In this document: positions 1,577 through 57,317 of the stretch, in pieces | How positions within the stretch are numbered: position 1 is the first letter of the stretch | Layout of the letters: every line of letters begins with the position of its first letter | Source: a virus | Length of the DNA: 64,000 nucleotides | IMG/VR virus record: IMGVR_UViG_3300036795_000108 | Coordinates: 23,222 to 87,221 of that record | Strand: one strand, 5' to 3' | Made by a program: the position numbers and the translations under genes | Notes under the pieces: model-generated | What the model was told of the DNA's origin: nothing | The model's input: only the letters and a program-made list of their open reading frames with translations | The model's database searches: none

Positions 1577-2565
1577 TAGCGCCTGAACTCGAACGCGCGT
1601 TGCTTGACGACCAGCGGCTTGTCCTTCGGTCCCTTGACGGAATCGGGGATCCATATAGGTAAATGTCGATTCTGACTCGGATACCACTGATTCCGCCAAT
1701 GGGCCCGGGAGATCCACCTATGAGTCCAATTGACGTTTCGCCTGTCATCCGTGTCCGCGTAGATCTTGCGTCGCAAAACCATGACGATGACGGTCTTGAC
1801 CTGTCGGGCTTTGGCACGCCGTCGAACCGGCCGGCTGACATCTCCCTTGTTCAAAACGAACAGGCGTTGCTGGGCGAGAAACCAGAAGGAGACAAGCAGC
1901 TTCGCGATCGGGAACTGGTAGCTGGCCACACTCCCGTCGCCGGGAAACGCGACCTCTGATACAAGCGGCGCGAGCGTCCCGAATGCGTCCGAGTAGCCGA
2001 TCACAACGGCGAGGTTTGAGTCGGGCCTCTTGACCGTCACCCACGCGAACGCGACCAGTGAAGCATCCTCCCAGAAGTTAGGGATCGACTCGGCTAGCCA
2101 GACAAACCCGTTGGGGATCAGCAGATCGCTTTCTCGTAGCTCGAAAGGGTCCATAGGATCGCGGAAGCCCGCTGCGATAATCGCCGAAACCTCCGCGGAG
2201 GCGTAAATGGCTTCGCAGTCGGACAGGCCCATCTTGGTCGCCGTATAGAGGGGAGGCATGTCCATCTCTGCAAACAGATCCGCCTTATCGGGCAGCAGCG
2301 TTGGGCCAATATGGGTCATGGCGGCCGAGATCGTCTTCGCCCAGTCATCTCCGCGTTGACTTCTGACGAACGCGATGGCGTCCGTCAGCTTGTCCATCGC
2401 GATCTCGTAGCCGCGATCCGTCGGCTGTCCGTAACCGTGGACTCCTGGTATACGCTTTTCCTGCATCGGACCTCGATTCCGGTGTCGGCCCCGGAGCGTT
2501 CCTGCGCTGCCGGGGCATTCTTTACGGGCGTCTAATCCTACAGCCGATCCCGGCTCGCGGGTCAC
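1576..2565 (-). CDS. conserved phage hypothetical protein (start may be further downstream)
   Basis: C-terminal WTHRWISRAHWRNQWYPS...IWIPDSVKGP motif typical of an actinophage family. Coupled to its neighbours. Confidence 0.6.
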   Translation of the reverse strand: MTREPGSAVGLDARKECPGSAGTLRGRHRNRGPMQEKRIPGVHGYGQPTDRGYEIAMDKLTDAIAFVRSQRGDDWAKTISAAMTHIGPTLLPDKADLFAEMDMPPLYTATKMGLSDCEAIYASAEVSAIIAAGFRDPMDPFELRESDLLIPNGFVWLAESIPNFWEDASLVAFAWVTVKRPDSNLAVVIGYSDAFGTLAPLVSEVAFPGDGSVASYQFPIAKLLVSFWFLAQQRLFVLNKGDVSRPVRRRAKARQVKTVIVMVLRRKIYADTDDRRNVNWTHRWISRAHWRNQWYPSQNRHLPIWIPDSVKGPKDKPLVVKQRAFEFRR

Positions 2566-2936
2566 GCAGTCTCTTTCGCCCAGCGGTTCTGCTCGTCCTT
2601 GACCAGCCCCGTCCGGGGCATCACGCGGTACAGGTAGTTCGCCGTGATGCCGAGCTTCTGAGCGATCTCCGGGATCGTCAACGGCCCGTTCTGCTCGACC
2701 GCCCCTACGGCCTGCTGAAGCCGCGAGCCGCCCTTCTGAGACCCCGGAGGGCGCCCGCGACGACGACGAGTCGGGCGCGACTTGACGACGGTGTCCTCCA
2801 ACTTGGCTGTCGAGGCGGGCGGCTGGCCATTCTCGCCGAGCGCTCCGAGCGCGGCCCGCAGCTTCTCGGCCTGGACCTCATGAAAGACAAGGCCCTCCCG
2901 GATCTTCTCCGCCACTGCTTCTACGTGCTGCATCAC
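2562..2936 (-). CDS. coiled-coil + AT-hook-like + winged-HTH DNA-binding protein
   Basis: RRRRGRPPGSQKGGSR followed by LTIPEIAQKLGITANYLYRVMP. RBS gaggaa upstream. Confidence 0.75.
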   Translation of the reverse strand: MMQHVEAVAEKIREGLVFHEVQAEKLRAALGALGENGQPPASTAKLEDTVVKSRPTRRRRGRPPGSQKGGSRLQQAVGAVEQNGPLTIPEIAQKLGITANYLYRVMPRTGLVKDEQNRWAKETA

Positions 2937-2954
2937 TTCCTCCTCTGGTTGACT

Positions 2955-3218
2955 CTAGGTAATCGGGGCGTCTACCGTCCGCGGAGTCAAGGCATCGAGC
3001 GCTTCTTGTAACTCGCGACGATGAAACCCCGGGACTACCTGCGCATGTTCGGCGAGAAGATGCTCAACCGCGTGGATAAGTTCGCTCATGGGCGCAACCG
3101 ACGCGACCTCGACATCCTCGCCGAGCGCCAATGACGGACCTCGTTTAGCGACGATGTCGAGTGGCATCAGCGACCGGGCGTCGGAGCCAGTGAGCACCCA
3201 ATGTCGTCGGTCAGGCAC
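2955..3218 (-). CDS. hypothetical protein
   Basis: GTG start overlaps the end of the recombinase gene. Confidence 0.5.
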   Translation of the reverse strand: MPDRRHWVLTGSDARSLMPLDIVAKRGPSLALGEDVEVASVAPMSELIHAVEHLLAEHAQVVPGFHRRELQEALDALTPRTVDAPIT

Positions 3219-4332
3219 CGCGTTCCTCCTCCGGGAGCTGGGAGCGCAGGTAGGCGATCTCCTCATCCATCTCCGCTACCTGCTCAAGCGTGACGCCTAA
3301 CGCGGTCTGCTTGTCCTCCAACTCCGCGATGCGAGCGCGCGCGACCTCCGGAGCGATCTCCACCCCGCCATCCCCGCCATCCCCGCCATCCTCCGGTACC
3401 ACCACCGCGTCGGTGACCAACTCCTCGCTCGCATCCTCAGCCCGGCGGTTTAGCTCCTCGGCCTGCCGAAGCCACACCTCGATCGCCGCGCCATCCTGGC
3501 CACCCAACGCCATCTGCGCCGCCGCTGGCGACAACGTGCCCGGACGCACCTCCTGAGCCCGATCGTAGATCGCCCGGAAGCGCTCACGGAACGCCTCGGG
3601 CAGATCATTCGTGATGCTGACGACCATCTCCTCGACCGTCTCCGCGCTCGGCGCCGGCCGCGACGGCTCATCGCTCCACGTCGGGATCTCGCCCTCGGTG
3701 TAGACCGCGATCCCGCCAGTCGCCTTCGGGCAGTACCACTTCACCCCATTCGACATCGCCCGGTTGAACTTCATGTTGCGGGGATAGGTGACGTGATTCG
3801 GGTCCGCCCCCTTGCTCGTCTTATCGAGCAGGTGAGCACGCCCGGCGTCCTCGTCATCGAAGCGCGACTCTCCCGCGTACTCCTCGCCCGGGCGCTGACG
3901 CGAGGGCTGGCAGTGATCGCAATGGCGCTCCTGCACTCCGGCGTTCGGGCAACCCTTGGCGTGACGCAGATAGCCGACCTCGTCGGGATCGGCGAACTCG
4001 GTGCGCTCGAAGAAGTGGATCTCGCACGCCGCGTTCGTATGCTCGACGATCGCGTAGCGGTAGTCGGGCAGCTCCTGTACGAACGTCGCCAGCAGGTTGG
4101 CACCCACAACCGGGTTGCCCTTGACCATGTAAATCCCGGTCATTGACTGCTGCGCCGTCAGCCCCAGGCTGCGACCCATCTGGATCTTCGTTACCGCCTG
4201 GTAGAAGTTGCGGACGTCCGGGAACATCCCCGACTCCGCGAAGCCCTTAGACAGGCGGATGTCGAAGTCGAGTTGCTTGTGGGGATTGAGGGTCGCTACC
4301 TCGCTGCCCGGCTTCTGTTCAGTCTCCGGCAT
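3211..4332 (-). CDS. RecT/Red-beta-like single-strand annealing protein
   Basis: QAVTKIQMGRSLGL..QSMTGIYMVKGNP and YPRNMKFNRAMSNGVKWYCP..GIAVYTEGE motifs. Lies near the exonuclease. RBS gagcagg. Confidence 0.65.
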   Translation of the reverse strand: MPETEQKPGSEVATLNPHKQLDFDIRLSKGFAESGMFPDVRNFYQAVTKIQMGRSLGLTAQQSMTGIYMVKGNPVVGANLLATFVQELPDYRYAIVEHTNAACEIHFFERTEFADPDEVGYLRHAKGCPNAGVQERHCDHCQPSRQRPGEEYAGESRFDDEDAGRAHLLDKTSKGADPNHVTYPRNMKFNRAMSNGVKWYCPKATGGIAVYTEGEIPTWSDEPSRPAPSAETVEEMVVSITNDLPEAFRERFRAIYDRAQEVRPGTLSPAAAQMALGGQDGAAIEVWLRQAEELNRRAEDASEELVTDAVVVPEDGGDGGDGGVEIAPEVARARIAELEDKQTALGVTLEQVAEMDEEIAYLRSQLPEEERGA

Positions 4333-22300: not shown

Positions 22301-25300
22301 GCCCGCCTGCGCAGCCAAACCATGCTGGTCGATCGCCGCGCCGACCGACAGCCACGTCAGACCACTGATCGAACGCCGCGCCTCCTGACGCTTGGTCTTG
22401 GCCTTGCGTGCCGCCTCGTCATGCTTGGTCTTCGAGGTCTTCCCGGCCTCGTAGTTGGCCTCCTGCGCCTTGTACGCCTGATAGCTGACCACCGGGTATG
22501 TCCTGCCGTTGAACGTGTAGGACTTCGCGCCCTGATAGCCCGGGCCCCAGTACATCTCATAGGTCGACGTCGACCCGGGGATCAGCACCGGCCCTTCCAA
22601 ACCCGTCGGCTTGCTAGACGCCGACGACGAGGATGTCTTGTCATGGTGGGTGTAGCTCTGCTGCGCCTGCTTGACACCCGTGATCGCGTCCCCAAGAGCA
22701 CCGCCGTTCTGGAAACGCCGGATGAAGCCACCCCCGCGGTAGCCCTGCGCAAACGCGGCCTCTGCGCCCGCCACCCGGTTCGCCGCCGCTGGGATCCCCG
22801 GCTTCTCGAAGTTGTTCATCAACCACAACGCCGCCGCGCTCGGGGTCCGCTGACTGTTCATCTCCGACACGCCCACACGGCCGATGTCCGCCGTCAGCAG
22901 CGACGCCTGCGTCGGGATCGCCTGCCACGGAACGTGATGCTGCTGCGCATAGCTGAACAGCTTCGAGCCCGGCGTCCACTGCCACAAGCCGGCCGCCCCG
23001 CCGCCACTGATCGCCGGATGAAGCGAAGACTCCTGCACCGCATTGCCGATCGCGCCCGCAATCGCGACCTTGTCCCACCCACCGGCATGCAAGGACTGGG
23101 CGATCTGATCCGACACCGGACCCTTGACCGACACGCCTAGGATCGACGCGCCCGCCTTGCCGTTCCGCATCCCCTCGAGCTGCGCGATCATCCGGTTCGC
23201 GGCCTTCGTCTCGGTATTCAACGCCGCCTGCCCCTCGCGCACAATCGTCCCGCTCGCCTCGATCACCGGCGCCTTGATCCTGTCCACAAACCCACCGTCG
23301 GCGAAGTGCGGCATCTGCTGGGAGGCGATCGCGCCGAGCAGCCCCGGCGCGGCGTGCTCCATCATCTGCTGGCCGTGCCCGGTCATGACGAACTCGTTAC
23401 CGGCCGCGAGAATCGGTGTGCTGTCGCTATACGGGTCGCCCGGCACCCAGCCACCGAAGTTCTTCGCGATCCCACGGATCGTCGCCTTGTTCTGCCCGCC
23501 CCCCGTAGCGACCGTCGGCTGGCCGATCAGCTTCGTAGAGCCGAACGCCTTCAGCGTCGCATTCAACTCCTGGGTGAGCAGCTTGTTGCCCTGCTGAACG
23601 GAGATGACGCCCGAACTCATCGCCTTGCTGACATTCGCGGCATACTGCGACCAGTTCTGGTTGGCGTCCTGCATCGCCGAGAGACTGCCGCTCTGGATCG
23701 CCTTGGTCTGTGACTGCTGCTGGCTCGTCACAGCCGTCGTCATCTGCTGGAAGTAGTTCTGGGTCAGCGTCTGAAGCTGGCCGTACTGGGTAGACGCGAT
23801 CTGCTTTTGCTTGGCGGTGCCATCCGACATCACGTCCTTGAGCTGGCTCATCGCCGCGCTGAGGTCACTCACCATGCCGCCGCCCGTCTTCTTGGCGATC
23901 ACGCGGATCGACGGGAACTCCGTCTCCAGGTTCCCGACGGCGGTGCCCAGGTTCTTCTGGGCCGACTGCAATCTGAACGAGGACGCGAGATCGCTCGCCG
24001 TGTCCTCCCCCTGCTTGCGCAGATAGTTGTGCAGGCCCGGGAACTGCTTCTCCATCGAAGCGATCATGCTCGACACCGCGCCCGCCGGGAGCTTGCCCTT
24101 GGCCTCCAAGCCGGCCGAGAGTTGCAGCATCGCCTGGCCCGCAGCGTCGCGCAGTGACGGCGCCGAGTTGTTGAACTGCGCGACCCAGTCCGTGACCATG
24201 CCCTTCGCGTCGGGCAACTGGATCTGAGAGAGCTGCTGCGTGAACTTCGACACGTCCGCGCCCTGCAGATCACCCGCCGCCTTGCTCGCCGCCGAAGACA
24301 TCGCCTGCAGTTGCCCGATCTGCTTCGAGAAGTCCGGGCCCTTCTCCGTAACCGCACCGAAACGACCCATGACCGTCGTCGTCGTCTGGCCCATCTTGGT
24401 GAAATGCGACGCGACGTCGTCAGCCTGCTTGCTGAGCTTCTGCAACGCCGCGACATTCCCCGAACTGGCGGCCTGCTTGATCTGGTTCTGAAGACCCGCG
24501 ACCTGCTTGTCCTGCGCGGACGGCTGGTTCAACAGCGACTCGATTCCCTTCGCCGCCGCACCCACGCCGGCGCCGACCGCCGCCCCGACGCCCGTGCCGA
24601 GCACCGGCACGACCGAGCCGATACCAGCACCAATGCCGGCGCCCGTCCCGATCGCCTTGCCCCAGCTCTTGCCCTGCTGGCCGAACAGACCGCCAACCGC
24701 TCCACCCCCCATGTTGCCGAGCAGACCACCCACGCCCGCCGCCATCCCACCGGAGAGCAATGTCGTGCCCATCGACGCGGCGCCCTCCGCGCCGAACAAC
24801 GCGCCCAGCAGACCATCCGAGGACGCCGCGGTCTGCGTGCTGCGCGCCAACGTATCCGCGTCCGTCGCGTCGCCCATCACCCCAGCCGTCCCAGCCTCCA
24901 GATTCGATGCGGTCTTCGCAGCCGCGCTCTCCCCAGAAAGACGCAGCCGGGGGGGCCCACCCCCCAATGCCGCCGCGTCGCCCTCAGCGCCCGCTACGGC
25001 GCCCTCAGCGCCACTTGCGCCCTCCACCGCGTCAAGGCGGCCGTACTGGTCGATCAGCTTGTTCAGCGCCGCGGTCTGCGCCTCGATCTGAGTGGTCTGC
25101 AACTTCATGGCGTCCGCCGCCTTCTCAGACTCCGACGGCTGCTCGGTAAACAGCTTGTTCACCGACGCCAACGGCGTCCTCAGACCCTTTAGCGCCTCCT
25201 GGATCACCACCCAGTCGGACTTGGCGCCACGCACCGCACTACCGATCCCACGCAGCGTCTTGGAGAGCAGGATCAGCCCGGTGACCGCACCCGCGCCGAT

Positions 25301-46089: not shown

Positions 46090-49000
46090 CTAGGAGAGCG
46101 CCGAGGCCAACTCGGCCGTAGCAGCATCATCCACCGGCGCCTCGGCGCGAACCGCCGTCCGCGAGCACTGGGGATGCTGGATCGGATTCTCGCGATATTC
46201 GCTAAGAGCCCAGACCTGACCGTTGGCCTCTCTACAATTGTGCACGATGATTCCTTCTGCGAGGTACCACCGTTGCCGCGTGGCAAGATTGTAGGTACGC
46301 CCAATAAACGCACGCTTGCGCACCTGGAAGACATTCTGCGCATGCATGAGACGGGCCATTCGATCCGCCAGATCGCTGAGCACACGGGTCTCAGTCGAGT
46401 CACCATCAGCAACCGCCTCGTCCTCGCGGGACGAGACACGCGCCATCCCCGCTCTGTTCGTGAGGAGGCCCGGGCGATCGACCTCTACCTTGACGGCGCC
46501 TCCGCCAGTGAGGTCGCCACCACCCTTGAGGTCGGCAGAGATGCCGTGGAGAACCTCATGCGACGGAAGGGTGTTCTCCGTAGCCCGAAGCAGGCCGGTA
46601 TTGTCTCCGCTGCGCGTAGCACCCCCGAGCGTCGTCTCGCTCGCGTCAGGGCCGCCCAGCATGCTTGGCGTGGTTCCCGCCAGACAGACGCCGCCCTGGC
46701 CGCCAGCGCCCGCGGACGCGAGCGGCTTGGTACGCATGGCAGCGAGCAGGAGAGCCTTCTCGCAAAGCTGTGCTACCAGCGCGGGCTCGACCTTCGCCCC
46801 CAAGTCGCCGCAGGTCGCTACAACGTGGACCTCGCTACCGACTCCATCGCCGTGGAAGTCGCCAGTACGAGTCGCCTTGCATACGAGCCCGCCCGAAGCC
46901 GCAACCTCCGCAAGATTCACTATCTCCTCGATAGCGGTTGGCACGTCATGGTCGTCTGGACGGTCTGGACTACCGGCCCGAAGACCCGCCAGCCCGTGAG
47001 CATCGCGGCAGCCGACCAGGTCGTCGCCTTCGACGAGTTCGCTCGCTCGCACCCATCCTCGCCGCGTGAGTATCGGGTGGTTTGGAGTGCAGGTGATCTC
47101 ATTGCCGTCCGACGTGGCGACTTCGACGACCTCCCCTTCGTACCACCGGGAGTAAGTCGCTCGAAGCTCCGGCGCAACAACTAGCGTCGAGCCAACGAAG
47201 CACGCCTCGTCGGACTCGGTCCCGTCGAGGATCTGCACGTGCGTCGCCCCGAGTCGCTCCAACGAATCCGTCTGCGCGCCGTTGAACGCCAGCGCCGACT
47301 CTGTGCGCGCAATCACCTCAGCGCGAGCTGCGTCGGCCTGGTCGAACACCCCCATGATCCCCGGGTAGCCCTCATCCGGGTAGCCGTTCGCGATCTGAGG
47401 GATGCTGTAGGAGCGCCTCAGGCCCTCCACGACCACATCGTCGATCGCCTGGCGAGTCGTATCGTTGACCCGGGTGACGAGCCCCGAAAGATGCTTGGCG
47501 ACCGCATCGGCGACGCTGCCCATCTCCTCCGACGTGAAGTCCGCGTTGATCGCCGCGTCGACGCCCTGCGCTGACTGGTACGCCGCCTCGCGCGCCGTTG
47601 GCTGATAGACGCCCTTCAGCGCGTCGTTCTCCTCGCCGGCGGGGAACAGATCCTTGATCGTCAGGTCATCCTTCTTCTTCTTCGGGGAGTGACGCAGCCG
47701 GGCCGCCCGGCCATTGACGTCCCCGAAGTCGCTCAGGCGGTCGATGACGCGGCCGCGCTGCTCCCGGAAGAACGAGCGGAACATCGGCTCGTACAGGTCG
47801 ACCGCCTGGCGCAGCGACACCGCCTGGGTGTCGCGCATCGACTGATGCTCGACCGGCATGTCGGCGGTCTTCAGGATCGGCTCAAAACCGCGTGGCAGCG
47901 CTGGCGGCTGCCACTCCTTCCGGGCCAGCGCCCGCGGGCTCGCCCACACCCGCGCCAGCCCCACAGCCGCATGCTTCAAACCCGGTCGGGTCGGCTCAAC
48001 CGGGGTCAACGAAACCGCCTTGCCGTCCGCTGGATCCGACGGCTCGTCATCCGAGCCGCCCCCATCACCACCATTCGCTCTCGCGAGCGCCCGCAACGCC
48101 GCGACGACCTCCAGCTGGGACTTACCCGACGCCGCAGCGATCGCGGCCGGCAGACCCGCGAGATGTTCTTCGAGCGTCGGCGTCCTGCCCGTGTTCGGAT
48201 CCGGTCCCGGCGGCAGAGCCCCAGTCCCGGTCGAACCGATCGGCGCCGCGCCACGCTCGGGGTTCGCGTCCATCGGCATCGATGTCGCCGGCCGCGGAGG
48301 CTGCCCCGCGATCTCGATCGGGATCAGGTTGTTCGGGATCAAGATCGTGTCCTGCTGGTCATAGCCGCGATCCCCGGGCTGCAACGGCGCGAGGCTCATC
48401 GCTTTGCGCGACTCGCGCATACTCGCACCCGCCCCCAGCATGTCCTTCGCATAGCCGATCCGGACCGACATCGGCTCGTTCGCCTCAGGCTCCTGGCGGA
48501 ACACCACGTCCCACAAGCTCGCCAAGCCGAGCGTCAGTCGCTCCGACGTCCGGCGGGCGCGCGGGATCATCGCCCGCAGAAAGATGACCTGGGCGTCCTC
48601 CATCTTGTAGTTCGCGTTCTCCATCAAGCCGCCCAGCATCGGCGCGGGAACCCCCCACGCCGCGAGCGTCTCATCCTTCGTGACGCCCATCAGATCCACG
48701 ACGCCCGCCGCGGCCGGCCCCTGCGTGATCGGCTTGTAATCCGTCGAACCGCCAGCGCCCGCCTCCGCGATCAGCATCTTGTACGCCGCGGAATCCCCCG
48801 CGAACTGCGACTCGTAGGTGGCCTTGAGCCGCTCGAACTGGATGTCGGACATCGTGCCCGAGATCGTCAAGACCCCCGAGATCCGCGCGCCGTTCTGAAA
48901 GAACCCCGTGATATGGCCGCCCTGCGCGACCGCGCGATCCGCGACCGACGCGATCGCCTCGACCGTCCCCATCCCGTAGTTCGGGTCCATCGGATTGGGA

Positions 49001-49638
49001 TACTTGAAGTGGATCACCTCATCCGCGTCATACGGGATCTGCAAGCCGTTCGGCATCGAGTAGACGTAGCCGCTGACCGTCCCGTCCGGGGTCAACGCGA
49101 TCTGCACCCGCTCCGGACGCAGCCGAAACAGCGACTTGGGCTGACCGATCCCGTTGCGCTCATTCTTGAGCAGGTAGTGGTTGCCGACCATCTCCAGGTC
49201 GGTCAGGATCGCCTCGATCATGTCGAAGTACGTCCACCGCGGGTTGGGCTGGTGAAGCAGCGACACGAGATCCGCGGGCGGGGCTTCGATCACCTCGCCC
49301 GTGTCGTTTACCAGCGCCCACGGGTACGCCGCAGCGGTGCTCGCGACAAGTGAGACGCACTGAAAGATCCAGGATGGCGACTGCTCCGTGCCGCCGTAGG
49401 CGCTCAGCAGCTTCGCGAGCCGCGCCGGCCCTGTGCGATACCCCGTCGCGAAGCTGTTCTCATACGACAGGAAGCCGCCTGAGAGCCCGCCTGCGGCCGG
49501 TGTGGGGGCTCCGATGCCCTTGCGGAACATCTCCATCATCTCCGGCCCGTCCAGCGTCTTGAGCGGCACGTGGCTGGGGTAGGAGCCATCCGCGCGCGGC
49601 TCGACCTGCCGACCCCGGATGCGAGACAGCCGCGCCAC
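46090..49638 (-). CDS. portal protein fused to MuF (SPP1 gp7-like) minor head protein, containing an intein
   Basis: Portal: PNP..T..D, LEMVGN, LRPERV, EVIHFK.PNP..PNYG, FFQNGARISG. MuF: RVNDTTR, RAEVIARTES..AFN, HPQCSR. Confidence 0.92.
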   Translation of the reverse strand: MARLSRIRGRQVEPRADGSYPSHVPLKTLDGPEMMEMFRKGIGAPTPAAGGLSGGFLSYENSFATGYRTGPARLAKLLSAYGGTEQSPSWIFQCVSLVASTAAAYPWALVNDTGEVIEAPPADLVSLLHQPNPRWTYFDMIEAILTDLEMVGNHYLLKNERNGIGQPKSLFRLRPERVQIALTPDGTVSGYVYSMPNGLQIPYDADEVIHFKYPNPMDPNYGMGTVEAIASVADRAVAQGGHITGFFQNGARISGVLTISGTMSDIQFERLKATYESQFAGDSAAYKMLIAEAGAGGSTDYKPITQGPAAAGVVDLMGVTKDETLAAWGVPAPMLGGLMENANYKMEDAQVIFLRAMIPRARRTSERLTLGLASLWDVVFRQEPEANEPMSVRIGYAKDMLGAGASMRESRKAMSLAPLQPGDRGYDQQDTILIPNNLIPIEIAGQPPRPATSMPMDANPERGAAPIGSTGTGALPPGPDPNTGRTPTLEEHLAGLPAAIAAASGKSQLEVVAALRALARANGGDGGGSDDEPSDPADGKAVSLTPVEPTRPGLKHAAVGLARVWASPRALARKEWQPPALPRGFEPILKTADMPVEHQSMRDTQAVSLRQAVDLYEPMFRSFFREQRGRVIDRLSDFGDVNGRAARLRHSPKKKKDDLTIKDLFPAGEENDALKGVYQPTAREAAYQSAQGVDAAINADFTSEEMGSVADAVAKHLSGLVTRVNDTTRQAIDDVVVEGLRRSYSIPQIANGYPDEGYPGIMGVFDQADAARAEVIARTESALAFNGAQTDSLERLGATHVQILDGTESDEACFVGSTLVVAPELRATYSRWYEGEVVEVATSDGNEITCTPNHPILTRRGWVRASELVEGDDLVGCRDAHGLAGLRAGSPDRPDDHDVPTAIEEIVNLAEVAASGGLVCKATRTGDFHGDGVGSEVHVVATCGDLGAKVEPALVAQLCEKALLLAAMRTKPLASAGAGGQGGVCLAGTTPSMLGGPDASETTLGGATRSGDNTGLLRATENTLPSHEVLHGISADLKGGGDLTGGGAVKVEVDRPGLLTNRAGMARVSSREDEAVADGDSTETRVLSDLADRMARLMHAQNVFQVRKRAFIGRTYNLATRQRWYLAEGIIVHNCREANGQVWALSEYRENPIQHPQCSRTAVRAEAPVDDAATAELASALS
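46237..47202 (-). mobile_element. class-1 intein (322 aa) in the MuF domain
   Basis: DEA|CFVGSTLV (block A), TCTPNHPILTRRGW (block B), RTYNLAT..WYLAEGIIVHN|C (blocks F/G). Splicing restores ESDEACREANGQ. Confidence 0.92.
46297..47184 (+). CDS. antisense-nested HTH-HTH + Vsr/DUF559-like PD-(D/E)XK endonuclease (start uncertain: ACG at 46297 or ATG at 46342)
   Basis: HSIRQIAEHTGLSRVTISNRL and SASEVATTLEVGRDAVENLMRRKG (HTHs). E.LL..L...GLDLRPQVAAGRYNVDLA..SIAVEV...YLLDSGWHVMVVW (Vsr-like nuclease). Confidence 0.8.
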   Translation, partial: TPNKRTLAHLEDILRMHETGHSIRQIAEHTGLSRVTISNRLVLAGRDTRHPRSVREEARAIDLYLDGASASEVATTLEVGRDAVENLMRRKGVLRSPKQAGIVSAARSTPERRLARVRAAQHAWRGSRQTDAALAASARGRERLGTHGSEQESLLAKLCYQRGLDLRPQVAAGRYNVDLATDSIAVEVASTSRLAYEPARSRNLRKIHYLLDSGWHVMVVWTVWTTGPKTRQPVSIAAADQVVAFDEFARSHPSSPREYRVVWSAGDLIAVRRGDFDDLPFVPPGVSRSKLRRNN

Positions 49639-54800: not shown

Positions 54801-57317
54801 TCAGCCGAGCACCCTGAGTCTCGCGCCCCCATCCGGCGCGGAAACATTGAAAGCATGGACCGCCGCATCATTCAAATCGTCGCGCGGGCCCGTCGGAAAG
54901 GCAAGCAGCTCCGCCTCAAACGCGCGAGTCCAACGCTCCCCCGACGGATGCCACACCCGGCCCGCGCGATACGCGTTCGAGAACGAAATCGCCCGAAACG
55001 CCTTATCGCCCCGCGGCTTGACCGGAATGATCGGCAGGCGGTGAGACACGTTGAGATGCTGGATGATCGCGCCGCCCTCATTCACATCCTCAATCGCGAT
55101 CGCCTCCGGCATCCACCCCATGTCACGCCACGTCTCGAACTTCTCCACGATCGCGTCCTCCTGTCGCGGCGCCGGCAGACGATCACGGTACGCGTCAATC
55201 ACCCACACCTGATCGCCCCGAAAGCCGAGCGTCACGATCGCCGTGTAATCCCCCCTCGCGGCATCACGCCCACCAGCCGTATCCACGCCCATGATGACGC
55301 GATCAAAGCTCGACGGCAGCTCGCCGCGCTGAATCCAGTTCGGGTCATAGATGTTGCCCTTCAGGACCGACGTGTCACCCTGGTAGATGAGCTGGAAAAC
55401 CAGCTCGTCGTTCTCGCGGAGCTTGACCAGATCCTCCCGAGACTGCGCGCTCGGCCATAACGCCATCTCGCCCCACTCAACCTCCATGTTGCGCTGATCA
55501 TGCGAACACGGGTTACGGCCCTGCGCCGACTGACCACACTGCGTGCATTTCACGATCCGATCCCAGTAACCCAACGCCGGCATGTGCAGCACATGGAAGT
55601 TCAAGTCGTCGACGAACAGCGGGAACAGGTCACGCTCGCCGAACCGGGTCATCAACACCACCATCCGCGTGCGCCGGTCGCCGCCCGGGGGACGCGAGCT
55701 GGCCGGGAAACGCTGGATGATCGTGTTCGTCACCTTCGCGCGCTGGCCCTCCATCGTAACCTCAGACCGCGCCTGATCCCACGTCGACGGGTCATCCAGG
55801 ATGATTTCGTCAAAGCGCCGGCCGAGGATCGGGCCGTCCATCCCCATCGCCGTCAAACCCGGGTTCGGGCCCGACGGCGTGTTGGTGAAGAACATCTCCT
55901 TCGTCGTCCAACGCCGATTCGGGTCCGGTGTCACATCGCCGAACGTGTTGGCGTAAGTTTCGCTCATCACCGTCTGCTGAACAGCCCGGCTGAAGCCCTC
56001 CGCCTGGGTCGCCGTATTAGAGATCAGGCCGATACGCAGATTGCCGTGACGGTGCCCCAACTTCCACGCCGGGTAGATCCACGACCCCAACGTCGAATTA
56101 TGCGTGGCGACTAGCTGCTCGCCGGCGAGATAGACGCCGCCCTGCACCTGGATGCACTGGCCGGGATATTCGCCGACGTGCTGGACGTCGACGACGAACC
56201 TCCGCCTTGCCCGTTCAGTGATGGTCGCCCGTAGCCGCGACGCCTTATACGGGACCGTGCAGCACTCACTCGCACTATCGGCCGTGAACAGCAGCCGCCA
56301 ATAAGGTCCGTGGTCGACGCCGTTGAGCATCGCCCGCGACTCGCATACGGTCGGCTTGAACCCGAGCGACGCCAACAGCAGACGCACGCCGTCTCGCAAC
56401 TCCGGGAGCGTTGTCGCGTAGGCACACTGGCCGCTGGTGATATGAACGTCGCCGTCCGTGTCGATGAGGCCCTGCAGCAGACGTCGGCGCTGATTCACGC
56501 TCGCGATCTGATAGATCGCAGGGATGTGCTTATGCCCGAGCAGCCCCGCGGCACGCAGATCCCCCACGAGCCCCCTTACGGTGATCGACGCGGTGCCGCG
56601 ATGCGGACGCTCGCGCATATTCCCGTCCAGCCAACGGTAATGCTCGACGTCGCGGATATTGAACGTAATCCGCCCCGACTTGGTCGTGCCGTTCCCCAGC
56701 CAAAGCCCCAAGATGTACGGGTCGATCGGAAGATCGGCATCTGGAAATTGGACTGGCTGAGCGACGGGGATCGCCGGCGGACGACGTTGCCCTACCAACA
56801 GGTCCCGCGTCTCAAGGCGCTCCCAGATCCGCTTGGTTGAACGCTGCATCTTGCCGTCCACGTAGCCGTCATAGCGGTATCGCTCCCGGTCGCAGAGGAC
56901 ATCCCACTCGTGGTTGGCATCAGCCACGATCGACGTGCCGTCATCAAAAACGACCCGTTCTCGCTCTCGCGTGGGCCACGGGATCGTCGCCTGAACCTTG
57001 ACCGGCGTCCCGTCCGGCGCGAACACCTCATCGCCAACCCGAAGGCGCCCATGCGTCGTCCAGCCGCAGGTCGTCAGCATCGGCGTGTCGTCACTCAGAA
57101 GCTTTGAGTAGCCCGGCGGCATCACGCAGATCAGGTACGGAAACCGGGCCTGATCCTGCAAGTGCGCGGCGAGCACCTGGTGATGCGGCGCCATGCTGAT
57201 CCGCCGCTCCCGATCATCGCGATGGGTCAGCCACGCGTACGGCGCGATGTCCGTCGGGCTCAGCCGACGCGCCTGGAGCAGCTTCTGCTCAAGGCTTGGC
57301 TGGTCAGCTACGGCCAC
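54801..57317 (-). CDS. terL: terminase large subunit with intein
   Basis: Walker A PPGYSK|ST split by the intein. IILDDP (Walker B), VLMTRF, GVDTA..DYTA, PTGPRDDLNDA nuclease motifs. Confidence 0.93.
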   Translation of the reverse strand: MAVADQPSLEQKLLQARRLSPTDIAPYAWLTHRDDRERRISMAPHHQVLAAHLQDQARFPYLICVMPPGYSKLLSDDTPMLTTCGWTTHGRLRVGDEVFAPDGTPVKVQATIPWPTRERERVVFDDGTSIVADANHEWDVLCDRERYRYDGYVDGKMQRSTKRIWERLETRDLLVGQRRPPAIPVAQPVQFPDADLPIDPYILGLWLGNGTTKSGRITFNIRDVEHYRWLDGNMRERPHRGTASITVRGLVGDLRAAGLLGHKHIPAIYQIASVNQRRRLLQGLIDTDGDVHITSGQCAYATTLPELRDGVRLLLASLGFKPTVCESRAMLNGVDHGPYWRLLFTADSASECCTVPYKASRLRATITERARRRFVVDVQHVGEYPGQCIQVQGGVYLAGEQLVATHNSTLGSWIYPAWKLGHRHGNLRIGLISNTATQAEGFSRAVQQTVMSETYANTFGDVTPDPNRRWTTKEMFFTNTPSGPNPGLTAMGMDGPILGRRFDEIILDDPSTWDQARSEVTMEGQRAKVTNTIIQRFPASSRPPGGDRRTRMVVLMTRFGERDLFPLFVDDLNFHVLHMPALGYWDRIVKCTQCGQSAQGRNPCSHDQRNMEVEWGEMALWPSAQSREDLVKLRENDELVFQLIYQGDTSVLKGNIYDPNWIQRGELPSSFDRVIMGVDTAGGRDAARGDYTAIVTLGFRGDQVWVIDAYRDRLPAPRQEDAIVEKFETWRDMGWMPEAIAIEDVNEGGAIIQHLNVSHRLPIIPVKPRGDKAFRAISFSNAYRAGRVWHPSGERWTRAFEAELLAFPTGPRDDLNDAAVHAFNVSAPDGGARLRVLG
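56097..57101 (-). mobile_element. class-3-type intein (335 aa) with LAGLIDADG homing endonuclease
   Basis: Begins with Leu (LLSDDTPMLT). W in block B (ANHEW), C in block F (QCIQV), T in ATHN|S. Endonuclease motifs YILGLWLGNG and LLQGLIDTDG. Confidence 0.88.

Follow-up and report, generated by a model that had tools for sequence, protein, structure and literature searches.

An antisense Vsr-like nuclease gene nested within a MuF intein of an uncultivated soil phage

Here we describe a dual-coding mobile element in a 64,000-nucleotide (nt) stretch of viral DNA (positions 23,222 to 87,221 of the IMG/VR record IMGVR_UViG_3300036795_000108; hereafter the window, whose coordinates are used throughout). 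On the minus strand, a class-1 intein interrupts the MuF part of a portal–MuF fusion gene. On the plus strand, the same DNA carries a gene for a protein with two helix-turn-helix (HTH) units and a Vsr-like nuclease domain, so that two proteins are encoded on one stretch of ~900 base pairs (bp). This architecture, an antisense Vsr-like nuclease gene inside a MuF intein, we consider practically certain. A preliminary description of this DNA had proposed it from the letters alone, with a Hint domain on the minus strand, a free-standing nuclease gene on the plus strand and an antisense 'junk' peptide as the minus-frame insert, and our analysis supports that proposal. We read the whole as a composite selfish element of the 'non-canonical intein' kind, and put at roughly 0.5 the probability that it is one whose copy in the window still functions in some form. 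The layout is of an already known, recently described kind, of which the window is a further example.

The features on which the argument rests are as follows.

46090–49638, minus strand: portal–MuF fusion gene of 1182 amino acids, interrupted by the intein (open reading frame (ORF) and Pfam)
46237–47202, minus strand: class-1 intein of 322 codons (stop-free translation), with Cys1 at 47200–47202, the terminal His-Asn at 46237–46242 and the +1 Cys at 46234–46236
47074–47088, minus strand: intein block B, TPNHP, intein codons 39–43; TPNH (TxxH) is codons 39–42
46237–46302, minus strand: intein blocks F and G (GRTYNLATRQRWYLAEGIIVHN); their mirror holds the start region of the plus-strand gene
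46273–47184, plus strand: antisense nested gene for the protein with two HTH units and a Vsr-like nuclease; proposed start TTG 46273, family start position ACG 46297, stop TAG 47182–47184
46261–46264, plus strand: candidate Shine-Dalgarno GAGG, 8 nt before TTG 46273, a spacing as in the GAGG-like boxes of homologs
46300–46566, plus strand: two HTH units (HTH_7, HTH_23), residues 2–47 and about 57–90 of the plus product
46735–47115, plus strand: Vsr-like nuclease domain, residues 147–273 (structural alignment)
46828–46830, 46855–46857 and 46876–46878, plus strand: Asp178, Glu187 and the Leu at the family His position, respectively (family alignment)

The intein and the gene opposite it

Translation of 46237–47202 is free of stops and yields the 322-residue MuF intein with intact blocks (C1...HN|C) that the preliminary description had called. 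Its N terminus reads C-F-V-G-S-T-L, with Cys at position 1, and its C terminus reads IIVHN followed by Cys (CREANG), in keeping with the rule of a His-Asn pair and a nucleophile. The TPNH of block B is kept in all relatives aligned. On the intein frame, Pfam Intein_splicing scored 34.0 bits, just below its 35.8 cut-off, PT-HINT was also matched, and NCBIfam TIGR01445 (intein_Nterm) scored 26.7 bits, above its cut-off of 24.5. Neither the intein frame nor a 94-residue piece of the insert gave a Pfam match to LAGLIDADG, HNH or any other endonuclease, in agreement with the earlier reading of the insert. The window intein is 46% identical over 138 residues to that of a high-GC IMG/VR contig (L011; GC, guanine–cytosine), the minus-frame alignment stopping beyond residue 138; against the intein of a second contig (L010) the middle aligns poorly, with 14% gaps. 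From the intact blocks and the presumed need for MuF, the intein probably splices, and the predicted spliced junction is ...TESDEA|CREANG...

The plus frame from 46297 to 47184 comprises 295 codons and a TAG, in exact antiparallel codon register to the intein. The stop (47182–47184) lies opposite intein codon 7, a Leu (CTA) whose reverse complement is TAG, and block B reads RVVWS on the plus strand (REYRVVWS being the mirror of TPNHPIL), both as previously described. The register and length of the ~295-codon ORF claimed earlier thus stand; its first codon does not, as 46297 is an ACG and no start, and the frame is without stops from 45925 onward. In Pfam, the plus product matched HTH_7 (37.0 bits, cut-off 23.8) and HTH_23 (36.1 bits, cut-off 24.6), and scored 21.6 bits against REase_MTES_1575, below the cut-off of 38.2. 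A phmmer search of 1.84 billion cluster representatives with the plus product returned 1638 at an expect value (E) ≤1e-3, 789 at ≤1e-10 and 8 at ≤1e-30; the best match is 40% identical (E 1.6e-46), and most are full-length, about 240–300 residues. In a 65-sequence family alignment, Ala138, Asp178 and Glu187 are invariant (65/65), and REase_MTES_1575 is matched by 51 members and DUF559 by 10. The profile of this family matched, in the PDB, the tandem-HTH structure 2lvs (E 5.4e-10), the DUF559-type endonuclease-like protein 3hrl (1.3e-6), the catalytic domain of I-Bth0305I (3r3p, 4.4e-5) and Vsr (1cw0, 1.8e-3). The profile was needed for this: the plus product alone, searched by phmmer against PDB sequences, gave chance-level matches only (E 0.2).

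AlphaFold run on the single sequence gave a poor model (predicted local distance difference test score (pLDDT) 45), which was not used. With the 65-sequence alignment, the pLDDT rose to 89.2 and the predicted template modelling score (pTM) was 0.70, disorder being confined to residues 284–295. The top Foldseek rows for this model were 1vsr, 1cw0 and 3r3p at a probability of 0.99, but with E of 0.02–0.05, and all Foldseek E-values were above 0.001. VIA-align, which re-scores only Foldseek's own list of structures, aligned model residues 147–273 with Vsr (1cw0_A; Z 10.9, root mean squared deviation 2.7, 114 residues aligned; a second Vsr match had Z 10.2), and gave Z 9.2 for I-Bth0305I (3r3p_A, 95 aligned), 8.7 for 3hrl and about 7 for a resolvase-type HTH over residues 2–47. 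By this model, the plus product has a Vsr-like fold preceded by a tandem HTH, in line with the two HTHs and Vsr/DUF559-like nuclease named in the preliminary description.

The two genes interlock at both ends. In all nine nested relatives compared (9/9), the His codon of block F, GHV(Y/F)(N/D/T)L(Q/E/S), gives the ATG of the nuclease when read as its reverse complement, and the GAGG-like box 8–9 nt upstream of that ATG is the mirror of the Leu and following codons. The G-H-V-Y-N codons of block F are unchanged at every position in nine Guernseyvirinae sequences; the Leu codon is CTC in seven and CTA in two (L016 and L017). In these two the CTA places a plus-strand TAG three codons upstream of the ATG, so the start of the nuclease ORF is fixed there at the conserved ATG. 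As for the opposite end of the overlap, the final beta-hairpin of the nuclease (residues 258–273) mirrors intein codons 30–45, TPNHP included; it has block-mean pLDDT values of 94 and 81 and lies within the Vsr alignment. Among the 150 top family representatives, a mirror of TPNHP[IV] occurs in the last 90 residues in 112 by a strict pattern and in 128 by a loose one. As a proxy and not a proof, this count hints that most of the family may be nested in inteins.

Distribution in relatives and the frame under selection

A tblastn search with the plus product matched 103 of 50,697 phage records, all at less than 60% identity (63 Salmonella, 15 Pseudomonas, 8 Gordonia, 6 Escherichia, 4 Vibrio, 3 Acinetobacter and 4 others). 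We inspected the layout in 16 of the 103 (14 complete and 2 partial genomes) and in two of three metagenomic loci (the IMG/VR contigs L010 and L011). The nuclease homolog lies antisense within a MuF-like gene in 17 of these 18 loci (15/16 phage records, 2/2 contigs). The coding sequence opposite it in the 15 phage records is annotated as MuF-like, head-morphogenesis or hypothetical and directly follows the portal gene in most, standing a few small genes away in two. The antisense gene itself is unannotated in all 15, because gene callers forbid nested antisense genes. Under the matches in PV360690.1, LC507823.1/NC_073177.1 and PV446483.1, the features read 'head morphogenesis protein' and 'hypothetical protein' (the latter twice), and some annotators may have called ORFs within the intein in these records.

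The exception is an Acinetobacter phage (P1068), in which an annotated, free-standing homolog (1803–2738 of its locus L009, plus strand) is convergent with a short intein-less MuF gene (2732–3508, minus strand), the two overlapping by 7 nt at their ends. This arrangement may resemble the ancestral state before invasion of an intein. A split intein was considered in this phage and dismissed, the MuF gene being short and intein-less and no intein halves being found among the adjoining small ORFs.

Both strands are free of stops across the match in nine of ten loci checked mechanically, among them loci of 43, 47, 50 and 52% GC, so that the openness of both frames held up in homologs. Gordonia phages and high-GC IMG/VR contigs have the layouts closest to that of the window. 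By BLASTP, its nuclease aligns over the full length with those of L011 (29% identity, E 2e-27) and L010 (35%, E 2e-34). Other searches returned little: the intein DNA had no blastn match among the phage records, a word-based protein search with the plus product found nothing at E≤1e-3, and a related-locus search of viral, metagenome and genome collections found no relative with the plus product, nothing with its relative P0005 and only relatives at 34–37% (L010, L011 and L020) with P0004. Related inteins with the same antisense nuclease family occupy two MuF sites ~28 residues apart (46237–47202 in the window; 3450–4499 in L011 and 3441–4490 in L010). The first, before CR(E/A)xxG, is used in the window and an E. 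coli phage, and the second, after HP(N/R), in Salmonella and Gordonia phages and the IMG/VR contigs. The relatedness of these inteins suggests possible site switching within one gene.

Selection was assessed in nine Guernseyvirinae MuF genes (eight from Salmonella phages and one from a Pantoea phage), which align without gaps over 1860 nt each, differ at 110–545 sites and encode nuclease relatives ~30% identical to the window's protein. Within the exteins, variation is concentrated in third codon positions as read on the minus strand (variable in 0.88 and 0.87 of codons). Over the 250-codon overlap, the variable fraction is instead 0.54 at minus position 1, which is plus position 3, against 0.35 at position 3 and 0.14 at position 2. 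Ratios of non-synonymous to synonymous differences (pN/pS; uncorrected, summed over 36 pairs) were as follows.

N-extein: minus frame 0.27, plus frame 1.25
N-terminal splicing domain over the nuclease tail: minus 0.47, plus 0.57
Insert: minus (intein) frame 1.03, plus (nuclease) frame 0.20
Last 20 intein codons: minus 0.03, plus 5.48
C-extein: minus 0.12, plus 1.78

Judged by these ratios, selection in the relatives bears on the nuclease frame within the insert and on the intein frame within the splicing blocks, and the intermediate values where the splicing domain lies over the nuclease tail indicate a double constraint. The dual-coding proposal in the preliminary description had pointed to selection on the plus frame of the insert, which is what these nine relatives, of lineages other than the window's, display. 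Codons whose mirror is a stop (TTA, CTA and TCA) make up 86 of 3123 extein codons in the Guernseyvirinae, whose GC content is ~50%; 6.9 would be expected per 250 codons, with a probability of ~0.001 of finding none, and none occurs in either frame of the overlap in any of the nine sequences (9/9). The openness in Guernseyvirinae is therefore maintained and not accidental. Another plus frame also runs without stops for 174–225 codons in seven of the nine (L002 at 2454–3128, plus strand, and the same stretch in L012–L015, L018 and L019); it is not stop-free in L016 or L017.

In prokaryotes, long antiparallel overlaps between genes that both yield folded proteins are rare and often met with doubt. 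The preliminary description gave weight to both strands being open, an emphasis that is misplaced at high GC: across all 1182 codons of the gene, the frame in antiparallel register meets a stop only 4 times, as against 28 and 33 times in the two remaining plus frames, and stop-mirror codons number 3 among 812 extein codons of the window gene. Over the portal part (47689–49353, plus strand), an antisense ORF of 554 residues shares the register of the nuclease gene and has no Pfam match, an illustration of how readily such a frame remains open at 66% GC. The openness of the plus frame in this genome is thus not beyond chance; what exceeds chance is the homology, fold and conservation of the plus product. 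A chance antisense frame of a GC-rich gene, encoding nothing, would account for such long ORFs, which are normal in the window gene, but it is refuted by the 1638 homologs (best E as given above), by HTH matches above the Pfam cut-offs where the 554-residue control has none, by a confident Vsr-like fold and by the same gene being open in phages of 43–52% GC, and we give it next to no weight. Equally negligible is the idea that the insert is an ordinary in-frame endonuclease domain, the plus-frame similarity being secondary. A minus-frame motif, DFHGDG...EVxVV, does recur in all relatives, but we rejected it as an intein feature, since it mirrors exactly the catalytic motifs AVEV and YNVDL of the nuclease; the lack of an endonuclease match in Pfam on the intein frame, the pN/pS of 1.03 there in relatives and the failure of the minus-frame insert to align with L011 past residue 138 also speak against such a domain. 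A metagenomic mis-join or inversion that put a nuclease gene backwards inside another gene is conceivable for a record assembled from a single soil sample, but very improbable: the same layout is present in 15 of 16 isolate phage records and two other IMG/VR contigs, and an inversion would not leave a host frame of 1182 codons open with intact intein blocks on both sides.

Status of the window copy

We propose that on the minus strand the class-1 Hint domain would excise itself, together with ~180 residues of unconserved filler, from MuF; the intein frame would hold filler because the same DNA on the plus strand is a separate nuclease gene. The plus strand would encode a tandem-HTH, Vsr-like (EDxHD/DUF559-related) homing endonuclease, presumably made from its own antisense message. 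By analogy with I-Bth0305I, this nuclease would recognise a MuF allele that lacks the intein, in a co-infecting phage, and cut it near the DEA|CRE junction. As in intein homing, recombinational repair would then copy the intein and nuclease gene together, and the Hint domain would splice out with its filler so that the head protein still works. The antisense placement may in addition serve timing, with homing uncoupled from late head-gene expression as the preliminary description proposed. The weakest step is that the window copy functions from TTG 46273, with a His-less active-site variant common to its nearest relatives. This TTG, eight codons upstream of ACG 46297, appears to be the best candidate start. 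A promoter scan found no sigma-70-like site, a search that is uninformative for an actinophage, and three terminator-like sites, all on the minus strand. Equally uninformative, the sequencing runs listed for the stretch included no RNA run, only the probable source soil metagenome.

The closest relative found for the window's protein is only 40% identical, and the selection values come from other lineages. A comparison of the window itself with four high-GC relatives speaks for the element, although it uses one codon alignment, optimised on the plus frame and hence biased toward it: identity over the HTHs and linker is 0.24–0.34 in the plus frame and 0.12–0.19 in the minus frame (4/4 comparisons), the plus frame equals or exceeds the minus in the nuclease core in 3/4, and in blocks A–B the minus frame is higher in 4/4 (0.38–0.55 vs 0.24–0.45). 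Several observations weigh against activity of the copy. From the 3 stop-mirror codons in 812, we calculate a chance of about one in three that an antisense frame of 295 codons is free of stops. In the window, block F reads GRTYNL, with Arg (CGT) in place of His, which puts ACG 46297 where the family has its ATG, and the GAGG box before this canonical start is lost. At the general-base position, 57 of 65 family members have His but the window has Leu, and the GGxWH motif found in 54–57 of the 65 is absent, the family's VAVE(I/V)FGGxWH being ASTSRLAY-like; the caveat of a degenerate catalytic tail, raised in the preliminary description, was thus well placed. Of 39 columns conserved at ≥80%, the copy keeps only 30, the third lowest of 65. 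The activity of the copy is uncertain because its start ATG is an ACG and its general-base His a Leu.

These same changes would be expected if the architecture were as described and the copy an inactivated or decaying nuclease gene, the intein persisting vertically since MuF needs splicing and the ORF staying open because stops are rare in its register. Most VSR-like cases appear to be vertically inherited (bioRxiv 10.1101/2025.01.02.630785), which fits this explanation, and we regard it as possible and to be taken seriously. Against it, the two closest relatives (P0004 and P0005, 36–40% identical) also lack the His, which makes the loss old and not a recent decay. Of 21 columns conserved at ≥90%, 19 are intact in the copy, as are Asp178 and Glu187, which align with the I-Bth0305I D196 position and the Glu of AIEV; the model is confident through residue 283; and the TTG eight codons upstream has a GAGG at the usual family spacing. 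A third explanation keeps the plus protein but not its homing role, the His-less subclade being a DNA-binding regulator, nickase or recombination helper. No part of the copy is better conserved or more confidently matched than the tandem HTH, and 33 of the 150 top family representatives lack E.xGGx[WFY]H, which suggests viable variants; nothing, however, points directly to any of these roles, and the retained Asp178 and Glu187 are metal-site residues by the I-Bth0305I alignment. We consider this improbable.

More broadly, intein and antisense nuclease may be interlocked across a very large clade, with most of at least 1638 clusters nested in inteins, in phages of Actinobacteria and Proteobacteria, and with a His-less subclade that may have shifted its chemistry or role. 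We offer this only tentatively and think it doubtful in full. If true, few families of long antiparallel overlapping genes in bacterial viruses would be larger.

Known systems and genome setting

In canonical bifunctional inteins, a LAGLIDADG or HNH domain lies in frame between blocks B and F. The window element occupies the same Hint slot and presumably follows the same homing cycle; unlike in canonical inteins, its nuclease would be a separate polypeptide from an antisense gene and its intein-frame insert a putative filler. Closer counterparts were reported by Gosselin, Arsenault and Gogarten (bioRxiv 10.1101/2025.01.02.630785), who described 784 actinophage inteins, 63 with non-canonical endonucleases that include antisense LAGLIDADG and VSR-like ones, in genes for DNA polymerase, minor capsid, terminase and thymidylate synthase, with an HHpred match to 3R3P; they proposed invasion of inteins by free-standing homing endonuclease genes (HEGs). 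Like the antisense-VSR inteins of that preprint, the window element combines intact splicing blocks with an antisense VSR-like nuclease in the endonuclease slot, an intein-frame insert without recognisable fold or domain (here by Pfam), MuF or minor-capsid exteins, a remote match to 3R3P and a free-standing HEG as presumed ancestor. It differs in coming from an uncultivated soil phage and a portal–MuF fusion gene, and the layout described here extends to Salmonella, E. coli, Pantoea, Vibrio and Pseudomonas phages, whereas the scope of the preprint is actinophages only. The preliminary statement that no characterised example exists is therefore outdated as to the antisense VSR-like arrangement, yet stands in the strict sense, none of those cases being known to have been tested biochemically.

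For antisense LAGLIDADG ORFs in the inteins of cellular organisms, the preprint refers to Gorbalenya 1998 and Gogarten 2002. Among the cases it cites, the Synechocystis DnaX and Chloroflexus SpoVR-like inteins have their endonuclease opposite the intein, as in the window, with another nuclease family and in cellular rather than phage hosts. I-Bth0305I, one of the EDxHD Vsr-like homing endonucleases, in which H213 is the general base (Taylor et al. 2011, PMC3239194; PDB 3r3p), shares with the window protein two N-terminal DNA-binding units of HTH/NUMOD type and a C-terminal Vsr-like domain, and its metal Asp and an extra Glu align. It resides in a group I intron and on the sense strand, unlike the window gene. 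The likeness holds only at the profile level, and Leu stands in the window in the column that the profile alignment pairs with H213, so that the general-base His of Vsr (H69) and I-Bth0305I (H213) is missing. In the fractured genes of Dassa et al. 2009 (PMC2677866), a Vsr-like or GIY-YIG HEG lies between the halves of a split intein. These share with the window the phage setting, a Vsr-like HEG as its own gene in the endonuclease slot and a coding overlap with the intein; there, the host gene and intein are broken in two and overlaps are 6–69 bp, whereas the intein of the window is unbroken, and its nuclease gene runs on the opposite strand and is overlapped over its entire length (about 900 bp).

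Our literature search found no paper on an antisense nuclease in Jerseyvirus or Kagunavirus inteins, nor any published account of the layout in Salmonella, E. coli, Pantoea, Vibrio or Pseudomonas phages, of a frame-specific selection test or of a start site written into block F. The passages of PMC8425127 and PMC11162368 that contain 'intein' mention the intein only and no antisense nuclease. The family offers many natural replicates with a clear selective logic, in which the host frame is kept open for MuF and the antisense frame for homing. It illustrates a way for a free-standing homing endonuclease to become established in an intein without fusion, which bears on the origin of bifunctional inteins. 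Some carriers infect Salmonella or E. coli and were characterised in studies that consider phages for therapy or biocontrol; as the nuclease is unannotated in such phages, a mobile nuclease gene has been missed in their annotations.

The viral record is 87,221 bp long, with terminal repeats and 66% GC, and was assembled from the metagenome of a single soil sample. On its 1182-residue ORF, Pfam Phage_portal is matched at residues 90–373 (E 8.3e-47) and Phage_Mu_F weakly at residues 731–792, and the C-extein aligns to the uninterrupted MuF sequence of contig L010. Portal and MuF-like domains, joined here in one ORF, are separate adjacent genes in the Gordonia, Salmonella and E. coli relatives. 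In the minus frame, GC content at third codon positions is ~0.9 in the extein and falls to 0.6–0.75 in the intein, and that at first positions, which are third positions of the plus frame, rises to 0.75–0.9 across part of the intein. Elsewhere in the window, an 838-residue ORF for the terminase large subunit (54801–57317, minus strand) matches Terminase_6C (E 7.6e-11) and, at residues 276–327, LAGLIDADG_3; the phage therefore carries a second intein, of the canonical in-frame kind.

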